Assembly: GCF_036321535.1 (NCBI RefSeq)
Contig: NC_087436.1
Span: 40,550,001-40,614,000 of the forward strand
Reading direction: 5' to 3'
DNA length: 64,000 nucleotides
From: Camelus dromedarius
Lineage: Eukaryota
Shown here: in pieces, positions 7,201-35,364 of the stretch
Numbering within the stretch: position 1 is the stretch's first letter
How the letters are laid out: every line of letters starts with the position of its first letter
Position numbers and translations under genes: made by a program
Notes under the pieces: model-generated
What the model was told of the DNA's origin: nothing
Databases searched by the model: none
Seen by the model: only the letters and a program-made list of their open reading frames with translations

Positions 7201-7372
7201 GGGGGAGAGTATAGCTCAAGTGGTAGTGCACACGCTTAGCATGCATGAGGTCCTGGGTTCAATCCCCAGTACCTCTTCTAAAATAAATAAATAAATAAAT
7301 CTAATTACCTCCCTCTTCCACAAAAAAAAAAAAAAAAAAAGGAAGGAAGAAAGAAAAGAAAGAAAGAAAGAA

Positions 7373-27300: not shown

Positions 27301-27428
27301 GAATTTTTTAAAGCCAATTTATTTCTGTTATATTATTTTAGAATTCTGAAAATTATCTGAATTAGAGAGAAGTATGCACACAGAAGCACATTCGTACACA
27401 TCTTCTAAACATGAAGACTGAAACTGAC

Positions 27429-27853
27429 TGTCAGCCGAGGGAGGCTGATGTGGGGTTTTAGGAGGTGAGTGGCCCAAATGAAAAAATGCACGAGGAGTTG
27501 CCATACTGCTGGACAGACTTCAGCCAGAGACACCATGGGGTTAACAACACTTTATTGTCACAGGGAGGTGCGCCCTATGATGCACCTGTCCTGCTTCTAT
27601 CTGTTTTCTGTCAGCACACGCGCGGTCTGAGTTTCTTTGTTTATTAGGCTTACAGAATATCTCTAGCACATGCGTACTTCCATTTTCTTTGTTCTAAAGC
27701 TTATATAATTGACGCATGCGTGGAGCAATTATTTACTGCATCCTACAAACATGCTCCGATCGTGGCCTTGGGTCCCACGGCTATAACTCATCTCAATGCT
27801 CTGACTGTGGCCTTGGGTCCCACGGCCTTAACTCATCTCAACGCCAGCTCACA
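27429..27853 (-). repeat. 3' LTR (425 bp)
   Basis: Direct repeat of 33320-33745. Viral-sense termini TGTGAG...CTGACA. Confidence 0.97.
27551..27556 (-). terminator. Polyadenylation signal AATAAA in the 3' LTR
   Basis: Plus-strand tttatt; the 5' LTR copy is at 33442-33447. Confidence 0.75.
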
Positions 27854-29023
27854 TTCCACCCCCTAGGTCGTGAACACTAGCCCACAGGGCGGAGCATTGT
27901 GTCCAAAGATCACAACAACAATACAGAGTACAGTATCCTACCAATATACAGACAGCAACAATAGCCAGGACAGTTAGGCTCCATCTCCAGGAGGACGTCA
28001 AGGATGACCACCAATTTTTAAGGGGGTCTTGAGTTACATGATCTATGTGATCCAATTTTTGATCTATTTTATGCAGTGTCTTAGCTATTTTTTTTTTTTG
28101 GTGATCTGGTATATAGATACAACATTTAATATGTAACATAGCACATGTGCCACCCTGGCTTGTAGTGAGAATATTTAATGTCATTTTATTTTGTAAGACT
28201 ACCTTTTGCATCTGGGTAGTCTCGTTTAACAATTTTTTTATAGTTCTTCTAGTAACATTTAGTACAGCTGATATGTGTTGAGCTAAAGTTTTTACCTGTA
28301 ATTTAACACTGATGGTCCCAGCACCAGGCAGGAACAGGGCCATGGGATAAAACCATCAAGCTGCACACTTTTTCCGGTGCCACCGGGTGTGCAGTGGGTC
28401 CCAATTTGTGGGGCGCTCTGTCAAAGTGGGCCGGATATGTCCAGGCAAGTAAGCTCTACCCCAAGTACAGCACCCTGTCCATTTAGGTGGGAGATAAGAC
28501 CATTCGTGGATGTCACATATCCACAGATACCCTGGTGGCAGGAAATCAGTGGGTTTTGTGCCAATTAGAGGTCGTCCATCCCACCAGGTGGAGGCATTTA
28601 CATTATAAGTAATTTTGGCACACAGCTCTTTTGGGAGCCACCCCACTGTGCGGTTTGGAGCCTCGTGTTCAAACTGCTGTTCAATACAGAGGGGGCTTAA
28701 ATTTTTTACTTTTACATGAACACTATTTATTTATCTCCACCCATTTTATACAGTCCTTTTAATTGGGGGGGGGGGGGGCATTGCCCCGCTCATGTAGGAG
28801 TATTTTTTTAATAGTCTGCTGCCGCAAGTTCCAGGGCGATCTCGCTGTCCTGTTGGCATTTTATTGAATCAAGGTGCTCCAATTAGTTTTGGACGCGGGG
28901 TGGAGGTGCCACGGCAGTCCATCTCTTGTGTCTACAGGAAGTTTAGTACAGACCCAACAGTGAGAGACGTTGTGGACTCGCGTGAAAGTGTGTGCCCAGG
29001 AGAACATGGTGTTTGTTTTTACC
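27849..29023 (-). pseudogene. env: env (gamma-type SU/TM), disrupted
   Basis: SU motif CWVC, decayed furin site RKKC, fusion peptide (W)WFYPMALFLPGAG, ISD-like LQNKMTLNILTTSQGG, CX6CC CAMLHIKCC, and membrane anchor WSLTVLAIVAVCILVG. Stops at 28863, 28748, 28733 and 28358; frameshift near the 14-G run at 28765-28778. Confidence 0.92.
27854..27864 (-). other. Polypurine tract AGGGGGTGGAA
   Basis: Purine-rich run directly abutting the 3' LTR start (TGTGAG) in viral sense. Confidence 0.85.
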
Positions 29024-29050
29024 CTGGATGGAAGGACAGAGCAGAGGTGG
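29024..29050 (-). promoter_or_regulatory. Candidate env splice acceptor
   Basis: Viral-sense CCACCTCTGCTCTGTCCTTCCATCCAG|G is a pyrimidine tract plus CAG, 2 nt before the pol stop. The exon starts at 29023. Confidence 0.7.
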
Positions 29051-29953
29051 ACACCATGATTGGCAAATCTCTCCCTTCTGGGAGGATGCAAGCCACTTTT
29101 TTATTTTGTGAGAGTACAGTGGCAGGAAGGGCTGTTTGCCCTGGGCGGTGGTACCACACCAACCCGCCCACATTAGGTTGGTTACACTCTGGGAGAGCTT
29201 TAGGAGCTATCAGTGGAATTGTCCAAAGCCGTAGGGCTTCTGTTTTTTTAAGTAGGGACACTCCTGTTTTTTCTAGAGTAACCTGTACATCAAAAGGCCA
29301 TTTCCCCACTCGTGGGGTTACCTGCAGGGCTTTTTCTAGCCCATCGCCCCATGGTTTTAAAAGGGCTAGCCAGGGGCCTTTAGTCTGGACCTGATTTTTT
29401 CATGTCCAGGTGTCCTGTTTTTCTGAGTTTAACACCCTGGGGGCGCGTAATATTAACGCATGTCCCACTATTGAGACATCGGAGGCATCCTGCACAGGCC
29501 CAACTCTGAGCCTCCGAATAGTTCCTTGCAATAACTTTTTCAGTGGGCTCATACCGGTACGGCGAGGTTGTTTATTTAAAAGACGTACCGCCTGCGGCAA
29601 GACACTGTTCCAGCCTCGCCCTTGTGGTTTGAGAGCCCTCAGTTTGTCTTTTAATAGGCCATTGTACCGTTTAATCATTCCTGTTGCTTGAGGACGGTAA
29701 GGCACATGCAATATTCAGTTCATATTATTTTTCTTGGCCCATTTTTGGGTCTGCTGGGCAGTGAAAGAGGTTTCTCTGTCACTTTGTATTTTTAAGGGAG
29801 TCCCATAGAAGGCCCGTAAAACTTTCAGTGTTTTAATAGTAGAGTCTTGTGTAGCTCGGGGCACATGGTGAGCAAAACCTAGGCCAGTAGCAGTGTCTAC
29901 CGCTGTCAGCAGGTACCGCAAGCCAGTACTCGGAGCAAAGGGGCCTACGTAAT

Positions 29954-31990
29954 CTATTTGTCATACCTGCAGTGGCTGAATTTCCCGTGCAATCTTCCCC
30001 ATCTGTTGGGGCCATCGCTGTCGGTGCGGGTGGTGCTTAGCACACCATGGACGTGCCGCATGGCATCTTTGGCTTTACTGTGGCTCAGGTGCAGGCCCCA
30101 CCGATCGGCTACCTGCCTCATTGTGTATGAGCCAATATGACCAAGTTTTTTATGGAGCCAGGGACCTATATCGGGTCCTGGGACCATAGCCTGTACAGGA
30201 CGGAGTTGGGCTAGCGCGTCAGCAGCATCATTGTCCGGTGCCAGGGCTGGGCGGTGCCCTGGTACGTGGTAAACAGTATACTGGCCTTTTTGTCCTTTGT
30301 CCCATAACTGTTTCCACATCTGTTGTCCCCACAGGGGCCGGTGTCCAATCATCCAGTTTTGCAGGGCCCATTGGGGTATCCACAATGTAAGGCCTCGATA
30401 TATGGCCCAACTATCTGTACAAATCTGCAAGGGGCTAGGTTTATTTATCAACACCAGCCATACTGCCCATAACTCAGCCCATTGGCTGGATTGGCCTTCT
30501 CCGGTCTCATACCAGAAGGCTTTAGTGGCAGGGTGCAGTGCTACTGCAACCCAAGTGGGCGGACTGCCCTTACAAGATCCATCAGTATACCAAGCAGTTT
30601 CCGGGGGTGGCCCTTTCCCTTCACGAAAGGGACTGGGCACAGGGTCCACCCCTTGTTGTGGGAGCGTCTGTACATCAGGCGCAACAAATCTCATAGGCCC
30701 TAACACCTGCTGCAACTTTGCAGCCAAGGGGCTAGTGGTGTACTGGGCTCTCTGTTTCAAATAAGCACCCCACTTCATCAGAGTTGGGGTTTGGGCAGTT
30801 TCTGATCGGGATTGCTTTGCCCATGTCTGTACCCATCCTGCAATAGGGTATGTGGCTTGCACTTGGACCTCTTGCCTCCCCGTCAGGGGTTTAGTGGCAA
30901 TCAAGGATGTATAAGTTGCTAGCAACTGTTTCTCAATCAGAGAATAACGACATTTAGCCCCTTTCCACAACTGAGACCAGAATCCTAGGGGCACTTTCCG
31001 CTGCCCATGTTTCTGCCATAAGCCCCAGCCATATCCATCATTGTCCACATGGACTGTCAACCAGAAAGGGATGTCTGGATCTATAGTGCGCAGTGCTTGT
31101 GCTTGGGCCACTGTCCTCTTAGTTTTAACAAATGCACATTTGGTCTCATCAGACCAGTTCCAGACTTCTCCCTTTTTAATCAGTTTATAAAGGGGTTTGG
31201 CTATTTGGGCCAAATGAGGAATAAACACCCGCCAGTATCCCAGAAGACCCAAATAAGTCTGTAACTGTTTAACTGTTTTAAGACGGGAATATGCCTGGAT
31301 TTTGTCTATTACTGCTTTAGGCAGCACTTTTGTCTTACCCGACCAGACAACACCCAAGAATTTGATAGAATATCCAGGTCCTTGTACTTTGTTCTCGTTC
31401 ACGGCCCACCCCAAGCCCGCCAGGGCTTCTCGCAGCGCTGTGGCACTGGTTTTTAAATCTGAAAGAGAACCAGAGGTTAGCATTATGTCATCAATATAAT
31501 GGAACAAACAACCGGTATCTGGTTTGCTCCACGTAGCCAGGTCCTGGGCCACCAGGCCATGACACAGTGTGGGGCTGTGCAGATATCCTTGCGGCAACAC
31601 AACAAATGTCCATTGTCTGCCTTCCCAGGTGAAGGCAAACTGTTTTTGGCTCTCAGGGGCTATGTCTATCGAGAAGAATGCAATAGCCAGGTCAACCACA
31701 TAGTGACAAGTACCCAGTTCATGGGACAGTCGGTCCATTAAATCTGTTATATTTGGCACAGCTGTATGCATGGGGGGAGTGACTTTATTTAGTTCCCGAT
31801 AGTCCACTGTCATCCTCCAGGAGCCGTCTGGCTTCTGCACCGGCCATATTGGAGAGTTAAATGGGCTATGCGTAGCCCGAATTATACCGGCTTCCTCAAG
31901 CTTTAGAATAGTCTGTCCTATTTCCTCATGGCCTCCGGGCAATCGATATTGCTGGACATTTACCACTCGTGTGGCCTGTGGCAAAATCAA
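29954..31990 (-). CDS. Longest surviving pol reading frame: RT, tether, RNase H and start of integrase (678 codons, no ATG start)
   Basis: From the ORF track. Catalytic YIDD and RNase H acidic motifs are retained; the frame leaves the integrase register near 30055. Confidence 0.7.
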
Positions 31991-32392
31991 AGGTGCATGA
32001 TGAGGATGCCCCCGTATAACTGTTTTTACCCACGGACTCTCAGGCGAAATTCCCCTTGAGTCGTCTGTATTTGCAATCCTTGCAAAATCTCTATCCCCAA
32101 AATGTATTTAGCTACTGGGGATATAGGCACTTTATATGCAGCAGGGGGCAGACGGCCAATGCCCAAAATCAGAGTCACTCATTTAACACACATTTGCTTG
32201 TTTTCATATCCTTTTATATCAACCCATGGTCCCTGAAAATGCTCCGGATTTTCATGCACCAATGTAATTTCAGCTCCTGTGTCTACTAGTCAGCACTCGC
32301 TGTTTATTCATGGGGGACCAGTGAATAGTTAGCTCAACATGTGGCCTCCGGTCATCGGGGTGCCCCACGTCCCGAACACCTTGGCCTTCCTC

Positions 32393-33251
32393 CTAGTCTG
32401 GGAGGAAATCAGCAAAGGCCACCTCTCGGACCTGATGGGATGTTGGCAATGGAGTATATTGTTGCTCAGGCCGTAATTTTTTCCATTAGGCCATCAGCAC
32501 CTCCAATGGCTGGCCATCTAATTTTACACGGTCCAGGCCAGCTGCCAGTAAATCACACCATATCCGCCGGCGATCTAGCTTTTGGGGCCCTCCTAAAATT
32601 GGAGCATTCCCCTTTTTTTTCCTTGGTGTGGACTTCCCTTTCTGTGTCACTGCACAGGAGGAGGGGGTCTTGGACTCACCTTGAGTCTTGGCAGCATGTA
32701 CCCCCTTTTGGCGCACCTCTATGTCCCCCAGACGAGCCAGAGCCTCAGTTACTTTATGAATGGGGCGGTCTACATACAGTGCTAGTAGCGCCGCCATAGT
32801 CCCAAACGTTCCCGTTGGGCCATTAGCCAAAATCAAATCTTTTATTCGAGCTGTAAGGAGCTCATCATCTGGATGCTCCCAGGGGCAGTGGGACTGGAGT
32901 TACACAGGCATAGCTGCTCTCAGAGGCGGCAGAGCTAGGACCACGCAGACATCTTTCTGCTGTGCTGGGTCTCTGCTTAAGCTCCTCTTTTTTGCACTGC
33001 AACTCCTCCACTTGCATCTGTAAATCTCTCATGTCTTGGCTAGCATGCCATAAAACAGATAAGAACATCCAGGCCACCCTCCCGGCTGCCTCTCGGTGGG
33101 CTAATGGGACATTATTTTTTGACAGCTCCAATGCCCTCCGGACGTCATCTGGCCAGGGCGCAACTGTGTCCCAATCCTCAGGTTGAGCCCATGTCAGCAA
33201 ATAGGCTGCCACCGGGTACCATACAGAGGTAGGGGGCCACTTTGCTTCCAT
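32393..33251 (-). pseudogene. gag: gag (class III type), frameshifted and apparently internally deleted
   Basis: MEAKWPPTSVWYPVAA...WMFLSVL with a coiled coil, then EHPDDELLTARIKDLILANGP and IWCDLLAAGLDRVKLDGQP, resembling ERV-L-type Gag. No Gly2 and no Cys-His knuckle. Ends at TAG 32395-32393. The frame is open upstream to ATG 33395. Confidence 0.8.
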
Positions 33252-33290
33252 CAGAGCATCCCCGTCAGGGGCAGGGGGTTCAGAAGGGGC

Positions 33291-33299
33291 ACTCACCTC
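33291..33299 (-). promoter_or_regulatory. Major splice donor GAG|GTGAGT
   Basis: Consensus donor 3 nt after the PBS; the intron starts at 33296. Confidence 0.8.
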
Positions 33300-33427
33300 A
33301 TCCTGCCGACTACGCCAAGTGTCAGCCGAGGGAGGCTGATGTGGGGTTCTAGGAGGTGAGCGGCCCAAACGAAAAAATGCACGAGGAGTTGCCATACTGC
33401 TGGACAGACTTCAGCCAGAGACACCAT
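33297..33427 (-). CDS. Putative LTR/PBS-encoded Env leader exon, MVSLAEVCPAVWQLLVHFFVWAAHLLEPHISLPRLTLGVVGRM(R)
   Basis: ATG at 33427-33425, 43 open codons plus AG up to the donor. Splicing to 29023 restores the env frame (AG+G = Arg, then VKTNTMFSW...CWVC). Hydrophobic core at residues 10-26. Confidence 0.6.
33300..33317 (-). other. Primer-binding site for tRNA-Ser
   Basis: Viral-sense TGGCGTAGTCGGCAGGAT is the 18-nt complement of the mammalian tRNA-Ser 3' end ATCCTGCCGACTACGCCA, 2 nt after the 5' LTR. Confidence 0.95.
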
Positions 33428-33745
33428 GGGGTTAACAACACTTTATTGTCACAGGGAGGTGCGCCCTATGATGCACCTGTCCTGCTTTTAATCTGTTTTC
33501 TGTCAGCACATGCGCGGTCTGAGTTTCTTTGTTCATTAGGCTTACAGAATATCTCTAGCACATGCGTACTTCCATTTTCTTTGTTCTAAATCTTATATAA
33601 TTGACGCATGCGTGGAGCAATTATTTACTGCATCCTACAAACATGCTCCGATCGTGGCCTTGGGTCCCACGGCCTTAACTCATCTCAATGCTCCGATCGT
33701 GGCCTTGGTTCCCACGGCCTTAACTCATCTCAACACCAGCTCACA
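33320..33745 (-). repeat. 5' LTR (426 bp)
   Basis: Direct repeat of 27429-27853; by manual alignment about 14 substitutions and 1 indel. Followed by the PBS in viral sense. Confidence 0.97.
33643..33732. repeat. 2 x 45-bp tandem repeat in U3 (also at 27751-27840)
   Basis: atgctccgatcgtggccttgggtcccacggccttaactcatctca occurs twice, with 1 mismatch in the 5' LTR. Confidence 0.95.
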
Positions 33746-35364
33746 CTGACTTTCCAAATTTATGAAACACATATGAAGATCATTGTGCTGTGTTTAATTA
33801 AATTTATTTCTCATTGTGTAAAACTGTTGCATGTAAATGGGAATTATTTGAAGACCTTTAATATTTTGAATATATTGTGTTACATAATGACTTGTGTTTT
33901 ATTATTAATAAAGTATAAATAAATATGACCTACAGCTATTTCAGTTTTTGATCAAATCACTGGATGATCTTATCTCTTTTACATTATATACTGATTTCTC
34001 ACAAATGAAAGCAGAGATATTTGATTCTTAATCTTTATCTGCACAGCTTTGTCAGTTTTGGAGACTGGATCAAATTGGAGAGTAAATTACATTTTGCTAA
34101 AAATGCATTTTTTTCCTCTAGGAGTGAAATATCTCCCAAATATTAGTGATGTGAATCCCTTTGTTAAATAAGCTAAGAATACATTAAATGTTACCAGGTG
34201 AGTGTGCAGACTGAAAAAAAACAAAACCAATCATATGCTTTGTGATATTTTAGTCTCTCCCCTTTAGCATAACAGAAAATAATCAATAATGAATTATATT
34301 CAAGTTTTTGTTTAACTATTTTTGAAAGCCAGTACTGTATATGCAGCTGAATAAAACATTCAAATGCATTACATGCTGGGAGAAAAAAATATACGTAATT
34401 TTCTGTCCAATATTTACATTTCAAAGTACTTTATTGAAAACTTTAAATGTTTTTATTTATATTCTATTATTTACTGAAGTTTTAGAATATGGTATTTTGG
34501 CCATTAATGAGTTTCTTTGCAAATGTAGTTTTAGTCAAAGTAGATGATACCTTTGTACTTTTTAGATGAAGCCGTTTCCTAAGAGTTTCCTAAGGGTATG
34601 CCATGGGAAAAGCCTACCAAACACATTCAGGAGGAATTGAACACATGTGTAACTTACTTTATCACCTGTTCATCATTAGCTAGAAATATGTTTCCAAATT
34701 ACATAAAGACTGAAAAGACATGTTTTGAATTATTTGAGATTTGATCTGACTGTTAACTAATTCTATTACTTGAAATAATTCTGATTATTTGACCTAATTC
34801 TAAATCACGCATTTGATTGTATCTCAGAAAACCAATTCCACAGACAGGGAGCCTGCTCCAGTGATGGTTGGGACCTTCATGGTCCTGAGCCCCAGGTATC
34901 TAAATTTTCAGCAGTTGTTACTGCCATTCCAGGTGCCAGACATAGAGGCAATTAACATGATACAGTCATTAGTAGACATGGCTTCCATTTAAAGTGCTAA
35001 TTGAGGGAGATGGATTGACAGATGGATGGATGGATTACAAAGCTGAAGAACCGATCAATATATTGCATGTGTCATAATAAAGATCTACTTTAGTTTTACT
35101 TAAGCACAAAAGATTTTTGGAGTAGAGAATGTGGTGGGAAGGTAAGTATAATTCTTGCTGTGTTCTAGAAACTCTTTGTATGAAGGACAGAATTTGAATG
35201 CAAGATTGCAGCAATATGATGGGTCAGAAATCTATCACAGGGATTCAGACAAAGATGATGACTTCAGAAAAATCAAAGAGGGGTAGTAGGAGTAGAGAGG
35301 AAAGAAAATCTAAGAGAAATTTGGGTGGTGACATTGGAAGAGCATGTTGGTGATTGTGGGACTA

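Follow-up and report, generated by a model that had tools for sequence, protein, structure and literature searches.

An ERV-S-like provirus with APOBEC3-like G-to-A hypermutation in the dromedary genome

Scars of APOBEC3 editing in endogenous retroviruses (ERVs) are well established in mouse and human. In the polytropic murine leukaemia viruses (MLVs) Pmv and Mpmv, edited by mouse APOBEC3 (mA3), G-to-A changes far outnumber C-to-T changes, the optimal target is TTC, editing rises from 5' to 3', and the edits include nonsense changes and bear no mark of purifying selection (PMC2041998). Hypermutated endogenous mouse mammary tumour viruses (Mtv) likewise have TTC as top target and gain new targets within C runs; their copies differ in signature within the family, with possible edits specific to the 3' long terminal repeat (LTR) (PMC12548423). 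Here we describe a complete 6.3-kb provirus on the minus strand (33745-27429) of a 64,000-nucleotide window of Camelus dromedarius contig NC_087436.1 (positions 40,550,001 to 40,614,000), with paired LTRs, a target-site duplication (TSD), a primer binding site (PBS), gag to env and a polypurine tract (PPT). It shares the listed traits of Pmv and Mpmv, judged by the hypermutation criteria used for those viruses, and differs from them in its camel host, class III-type pol, gag-deleted template and secondary targets, TGC being equal to TCC (PMC2041998). It also shares the target and C-run traits of Mtv, and its family the two within-family traits, while its editing load (~12% of G) lies below that of Mtv (PMC12548423). 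What is new is this camel copy and its siblings. Camelus and alpaca were included in a genome-wide strand-bias screen of 160 mammals (PMC6955324), and our literature search found no copy-level report of camel ERV hypermutation, which subscription papers or the supplements of PMC4866542 may hold.

A search of the same genome yielded 22 other loci of the family (split loci were re-fetched whole), and every test either paired two copies or counted sites at which two or three natural copies had the same letter. Against locus L002 alone, 191 sites had G in the partner and A in the provirus, compared with 62 in the reverse direction, 24 C/T and 32 T/C differences; in the GA context 92/353 sites had changed, versus 1/193 in the TC control (p ~2e-18). 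Where L002 and L005 agree, G-to-A changes were found at 136/1161 non-CpG sites and control C-to-T changes at 4/980, while CpG sites were symmetric (9/61 G-to-A and 6/63 C-to-T). Alternative reference sets gave G-to-A versus C-to-T counts of 130 versus 13 and 118 versus 11, and further sets gave 96/757 versus 8/627 and 96/943 versus 7/796. With other references and after correction for 22 copies, the strand bias had p 9e-18. The initial annotation, made from the letters alone, had proposed APOBEC3-like hypermutation and named beforehand what would speak against it: symmetric counts, changes mostly at CpG, or the A residues in the consensus. Comparison with the 22 other loci showed none of these and upheld the proposal. 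The motif strings and stops it quoted were found where it had placed them; its 5' limit of 32300 leaves out gag and the 5' LTR of a provirus that runs to 33745.

Three other origins are conceivable for the A residues: CpG decay after integration, inheritance from a shared ancestor, and assembly error. CpG decay does exist, as the CpG counts above and 6/14 differences between the two LTRs show, but the asymmetry stands with CpG sites excluded. The edited A residues are private to the provirus: L002, L005 and L036 lack them. L036 (C16:31.77 Mb), the closest copy at a G/A-blind distance of 1.1%, is unedited (5/621); this copy is rearranged: it has internal deletions, and one piece of it is inverted. 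Contigs of three other sequencing runs (two from organism A, one from organism B) had 0 differences over the edited stretches at about flank depth. In seven pieces from organism C, 20/1687 bases differed, yet 51/54 edited letters were present. Because these letters are common to a second organism, the editing is old and not an artefact. None of the contigs from the four runs spans either provirus junction with 31 letters on each side, and orthology across organisms is drawn from the shared edited letters rather than from junctions. An assembly artefact is thus excluded and the editing predates a species split; we judge decay, shared ancestry and assembly error to be refuted.

The edits follow a narrow sequence rule. 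GAA was edited at 63/95 sites, compared with 0/31 for the TTC control, and the other contexts gave GCA 20/91, GGA 19/108, GTA 3/50, GAC 8/71, GAG 6/63 and GAT 6/74; the nine contexts without A at +1 or +2 gave 11/609 when pooled. A logistic model assigned an odds ratio of 17 to A at +2 and 11 to A at +1. On the deaminated strand, the preference is TTC, then TGC and TCC (TTC/TNC, the GxA type). The initial annotation placed the changes mostly in GA context and read them as a TC preference. GA does account for 83/136 changes and T at -1 matters, but A at +2 covers more (105/136), so that the target is really TTC/TNC, with T at -2 at least as strong. Unaligned dinucleotide counts were set aside as a measure; they registered the drop in GA (0.45-0.5 to 0.27-0.3) and missed the +2 rule.

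Misincorporation by reverse transcriptase (RT) at low dCTP, with no deaminase, is an older account of GA-context hypermutation. GAA as the top context and the enrichment of runs agree with it, but GCA is edited far more often than GCC (1/93), GAC, GAG and GAT together reach just 20/208, slippage does not predict a +2 effect across C, and a trend that tracks single-stranded lifetime would not be expected. We regard this explanation as very improbable.

GGA was edited at 16/31 sites if the neighbouring G was edited and at 3/77 if not (p 3e-8), which indicates that much of the TCC signal reflects new TTC created during editing, as with the new targets within C runs described for mA3 in Mtv21 (PMC12548423). 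The TGC signal (GCA on the plus strand) is not explicable by newly made TTC. The GxA motif is known from rodents and from the ERVs of cow and rhino (PMC4866542). T at -2 is likewise favoured by artiodactyl A3F (Z2-Z3; cow, sheep, pig), and pig A3F also favours GC (PMC1636497). Plus-strand A at +2 (T at -2 on the minus strand) is a main determinant in these systems as in the provirus, and the provirus context fits artiodactyl A3F because both prefer T at -2. Camelids are unnamed in the searched main texts of PMC4866542 and PMC1636497, the latter covering cow, sheep and pig.

Editing was unevenly distributed along the provirus, being lowest in gag and highest from integrase (IN) onward (Table 1). 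Within these regions, G-to-A changes per non-CpG G were 14/164 in RT, 15/232 in tether plus RNase H, 26/138 in the env surface subunit (SU) and 25/109 in the transmembrane subunit (TM). Sites 5' of 30150 were edited at 39/674 (6%) and sites 3' of it at 97/487 (20%; p 2.5e-13), and after context correction the slope had an odds ratio of 1.87 per kb (p 3e-16). C-to-T changes had no trend along the provirus (rho -0.01, p 0.72). A rise toward the 3' end is the direction expected from minus-strand exposure (PMC2041998).

The coding effect follows the same distribution. Gag and early RT had been said to keep more Glu codons than IN and env, and this holds in aggregate, for regional codon totals rather than for motif residues singly. 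Glu codons in the provirus and L002 numbered 20 and 31 in RT-RNase H, 7 and 16 in IN, and 9 and 15 in env, and Lys codons 42 and 28, 25 and 11, and 20 and 8, respectively. Codon changes relative to L002 due to G/A alone comprised 85 missense, 36 synonymous and 5 nonsense; by region, these were 34 missense and 13 synonymous in RT-RNase H, 25, 11 and 2 nonsense in IN, and 26, 12 and 3 nonsense in env. Premature stops are absent from the RT-tether-RNase H region (30150..32020). The pattern is unselected, and purifying selection is absent from the edits. The LTR pair has 14 differences over 425 aligned positions. Editing specific to the 3' LTR was considered and dropped, as three non-CpG differences had G in the 5' and A in the 3' LTR and two were opposite, too few to tell.

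The provirus is not the only edited copy. The screened set consisted of 22 independent insertions including the provirus, with L002 and L003 counted as one; beyond it lie no fewer than 7 more long copies, together with ~10 matches confined to env. After correction for 22 tests, 4/22 insertions were strand-biased (the provirus, L032, L004 and L006), three of them in GAA context, which means that most genomes of the family escaped editing. L032 (C13:37.56 Mb) is about as heavily edited as the provirus (85/873 versus 31/740; GAA 30/58), and lies on a different branch of the family tree. Its edits are an event independent of those in the provirus: common descent was suggested by an all-G overlap of 54 versus 15 expected, but was rejected as the GAA-only overlap was 28 observed versus 26 expected. 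L004 (C26:24.71 Mb) has lighter GAA-type editing (35/946 versus 6/776; GAA 13/73), and its GAA overlap with L032 was slightly high (12 versus 8.5, p 0.02). Weak bias in L037, L011 and L035 under some references was gone after correction.

Candidate enzymes are encoded in the host genome. Three deaminase exons lie within 30 kb on C11 (L043-L045, 8.198-8.229 Mb) in the order Z1, Z2, Z3, and HxE and PCxxC are intact in all of them. Their nearest single-domain structures are the A3G C-terminal domain (Z1), the A3F C-terminal domain and A3C (Z2), and A3H (Z3). The Z2 exon matches Camelus APOBEC3 proteins at 98-99% identity and alpaca at 88%, and contains a YYFW loop, as in primate Z2 domains. This loop of Z2 is linked to TC preference. 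All three Z domains are joined in some camelid database proteins (P0121, P0124).

We infer the enzyme family (APOBEC3 rather than APOBEC1), the enzyme domain, co-packaging and dependence on a helper, and propose the following course of events. A few million years ago, in an ancestor of present Camelus, a gag-deleted ERV-S-like RNA would have been packaged by proteins of a helper copy, with a host APOBEC3, most plausibly a Z2 or Z2-Z3 protein, present at reverse transcription. This enzyme would have converted C to U in minus-strand cDNA while it was single-stranded, with 5'-TTC as its best target, followed by TGC and TCC, and new targets would have arisen in C runs. The minus strand opposite the 3' half, made first and single-stranded longest, would have taken most hits in IN and env and left gag with almost none. 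The uracils would then have been copied as A, and the DNA would have inserted into the germ line and gone to fixation as a fossil scarred by G-to-A changes. We put the probability that APOBEC3-type deamination of minus-strand cDNA produced the scars in this way at roughly 0.88.

Several findings weigh against this account. The 22 pairwise results share the same provirus copy and are not independent of one another. The editing claimed to increase toward the 3' end does rise from 6% to 20%, but TM is edited no more than IN, the rate plateaus from IN onward, and a step near 29800-30200 fits no worse than a linear slope (log-likelihood -261.4 versus -261.7). In L032, which has the same motif, the rise is weak and the copy nearly flat, at an odds ratio of 1.17 per kb (p 0.017). 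Finally, the identity of the enzyme rests on sequence, with which APOBEC1 is also compatible.

The step raises the alternative of a two-stage origin, in which the 3' half was edited earlier, or acquired by template switch or gene conversion, and the apparent gradient is a step. Besides the equal fit, when the provirus is divided into eight bins, editing of GNA sites other than GAA jumps from 8/149 to 34/100 where the fifth bin gives way to the sixth, and a comparable abrupt change is described in Mtv61 (PMC12548423). However, GAA is 50-70% edited across pro-RT-RNase H and edited at 1/5 in the first bin, which makes at least three levels, and among the screened copies, with at least 7 long copies outside them, none shares the 3' edits above chance at GAA. 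We consider a two-stage origin unlikely.

Editing of minus-strand cDNA by APOBEC1 or AID through the same mechanism is less likely still. Two more deaminase genes lie side by side on C25 and, from their layout, are probably AID and APOBEC1. The preferred motif of AID is WRC. APOBEC1 is active on single-stranded DNA in some mammals (PMC6854741), and the study of mouse endogenous MLVs likewise leaves APOBEC1 possible (PMC2041998). AID prefers purine-C (PMC1636497), but GT sites are nearly spared in the provirus (7/207), and the -2 T rule instead fits artiodactyl A3F (PMC1636497).

A further copy, L006 (C1:55.96 Mb), carries a different pattern. G-to-A exceeded C-to-T (64/923 versus 10/779), with GAA edited at just 4/66, GT at 27/174 versus 2/181 in the AC control (p 2e-7), and GTG at 18/68 versus 0/59. 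This GT signature falls mostly after A or T and was stable across five reference sets. L002/L003 and L038 lean more weakly toward it: in L002, 13/17 G-to-A changes are in GT, yet there is no overall strand bias, and the GTG overlap between L006 and L038 was high (5 versus 1.5, p 0.002). Tentatively, and at somewhat less than even odds, two deaminases may have edited the family, one with TTC/TNC preference (the provirus, L032 and weakly L004) and one targeting purine-C at 5'-AC, best CAC (L006). Against this stand a single clear copy, a weak slope in L006 (p 0.04), and contexts chosen post hoc. The two signatures known in Mtv, each assigned to one of two mA3 alleles, have TTC at their centre (PMC12548423), unlike the purine-C (AC) signature of L006. 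If true, this would be an unusual case of a mammalian provirus whose signature is dominated by AC, and it would implicate AID or a camel A3 domain (Z1 or Z3) in editing retroviral cDNA in the germ line. The possible signature raises the question of which camel deaminase reaches such cDNA.

The template of the provirus was probably defective before it was edited. A 512-bp gag stretch (in the region of window position 32873) is absent in the provirus and in L002-L005, which are unedited or lightly edited, and full length in 8/20 probed copies (L008, L009, L012, L014, L015, L016, L035 and L006, the last being the source of the probe). L034 and L037 retain part of the stretch, L036 has a larger gap, and L007, L010, L011, L031, L032 and L033 have a separate, shorter gag deletion. 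Since unedited sister loci have the 512-bp deletion too, it is older than the editing. The RNA template was probably already non-autonomous, and editing would have spoiled genes that it could not use alone. The earlier statement that the copy was inactivated at integration holds only in part: the cDNA was edited before integration, but by then its RNA template was missing 512 bp of gag. The spread of two distinct gag-deletion lineages in the family suggests that such copies were mobilised in trans. At a slow rate of 2.2e-9 per year, the LTRs would be ~7.5 million years old. At the camel rate of 2.5e-8 per 5-year generation, LTR divergence gives ~3.3 million years (PMC8605555). The age is only rough, because camel LTRs often undergo gene conversion (PMC8605555).

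By its serine PBS, class III-type pol and gamma-type env, the provirus appears ERV-S-like. XtERV-S of Xenopus tropicalis is a class III ERV carrying a class I env, with a Ser(AGA/TGA) PBS, TGT..ACA LTR ends, 5-bp TSD, YIDD, gamma-type TM with CX6CC and SU with CXXC (PMC8278194). All of these motifs are present in the camel provirus, which differs in its mammalian host, 425-bp LTR, and a dUTPase not found in the camel copy (PMC8278194). The top X. tropicalis Pol match, which may be XtERV-S or another element, has only 43% identity. Against PDB sequences, MLV-type and foamy RT scored about equally and hence give no placement; the best full-length matches are to proteins of pheasant, mole and frog and to unnamed ones. 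The gag remnant matched no Pfam family at E<0.08.

Because the basic phenomenon is already established, the value of this case lies in comparison and not in a new concept. The provirus offers an in vivo record of ancestral camel deaminase specificity (TTC > TGC ~ TCC) that can be compared with today's three Z domains. In placental mammals, editing has been reported mostly for ERV1 and ERVK, whereas here a class III-type ERV is heavily edited; in primates and rodents, editing was found in ERVK and ERV1 and not in ERVL (PMC4866542).

Table 1. Features of the provirus, with G-to-A changes per non-CpG G and per GAA site
Feature	Position	Strand	Evidence or remark
TSD, 5' copy, 5 bp	33746..33750	-	same 5-mer flanks the provirus on the other side
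5' LTR, 426 bp, TGT...ACA ends, internal 57-bp tandem duplication	33320..33745	-	
PBS, tRNA-Ser(AGA)	33300..33317	-	18/18 match to host tRNA-Ser(AGA) gene 3' end + CCA
gag remnant, broken, almost unedited, lacking the 512-bp stretch of longer copies	32330..33300	-	G-to-A 4/217
Protease region, broken	32020..32330	-	DTG motif in translation; G-to-A 6/61
RT (YIDD), tether and RNase H, moderately edited	30150..32020	-	Pfam RVT_1, RT_RNaseH, RNase_H; G-to-A 29/396, GAA 17/32
IN, broken, heavily edited	29019..30150	-	Pfam rve; G-to-A 46/240, GAA 22/25
env, gamma-type, broken, heavily edited	27854..29030	-	Pfam TLV_coat, E 3e-11; G-to-A 51/247, GAA 16/20
env motifs: SU CXXC, TM CX6CC	27854..29030	-	seen in translations
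PPT	27854..27864	-	purine run immediately 5' of the 3' LTR
3' LTR, 425 bp	27429..27853	-	
TSD, 3' copy, 5 bp	27424..27428	-	
Zone of peak G-to-A density	27854..30150	-	~20% of non-CpG G sites; GAA 47/55 by gene bins

Other observations concern the wider family and the window. L002 (C20:38.23 Mb) and L003 (C1:4.03 Mb) represent a single insertion that was copied along with its flanking DNA (9229 bp, 99.1%). The two LTRs within each are 99.5-99.7% identical, more alike than the loci themselves, which suggests LTR gene conversion in this pair. About 10 loci (on C13, C37, C9, C6 and C1) match the TM half of env only (query 1279-2141, 81-83%), suggesting a related family with this part of env and a different pol and SU. 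The 57-bp tandem duplication in the LTRs (27429-27853, 33320-33745) is missing from many family copies. LTR read depth was ~100x the flank depth in three sequencing runs, which implies many solo LTRs. Elsewhere in the window, ARAGORN reported a tRNA-Ala(AGC)-like sequence at positions 7205-7278, which may be the head of a short interspersed nuclear element.

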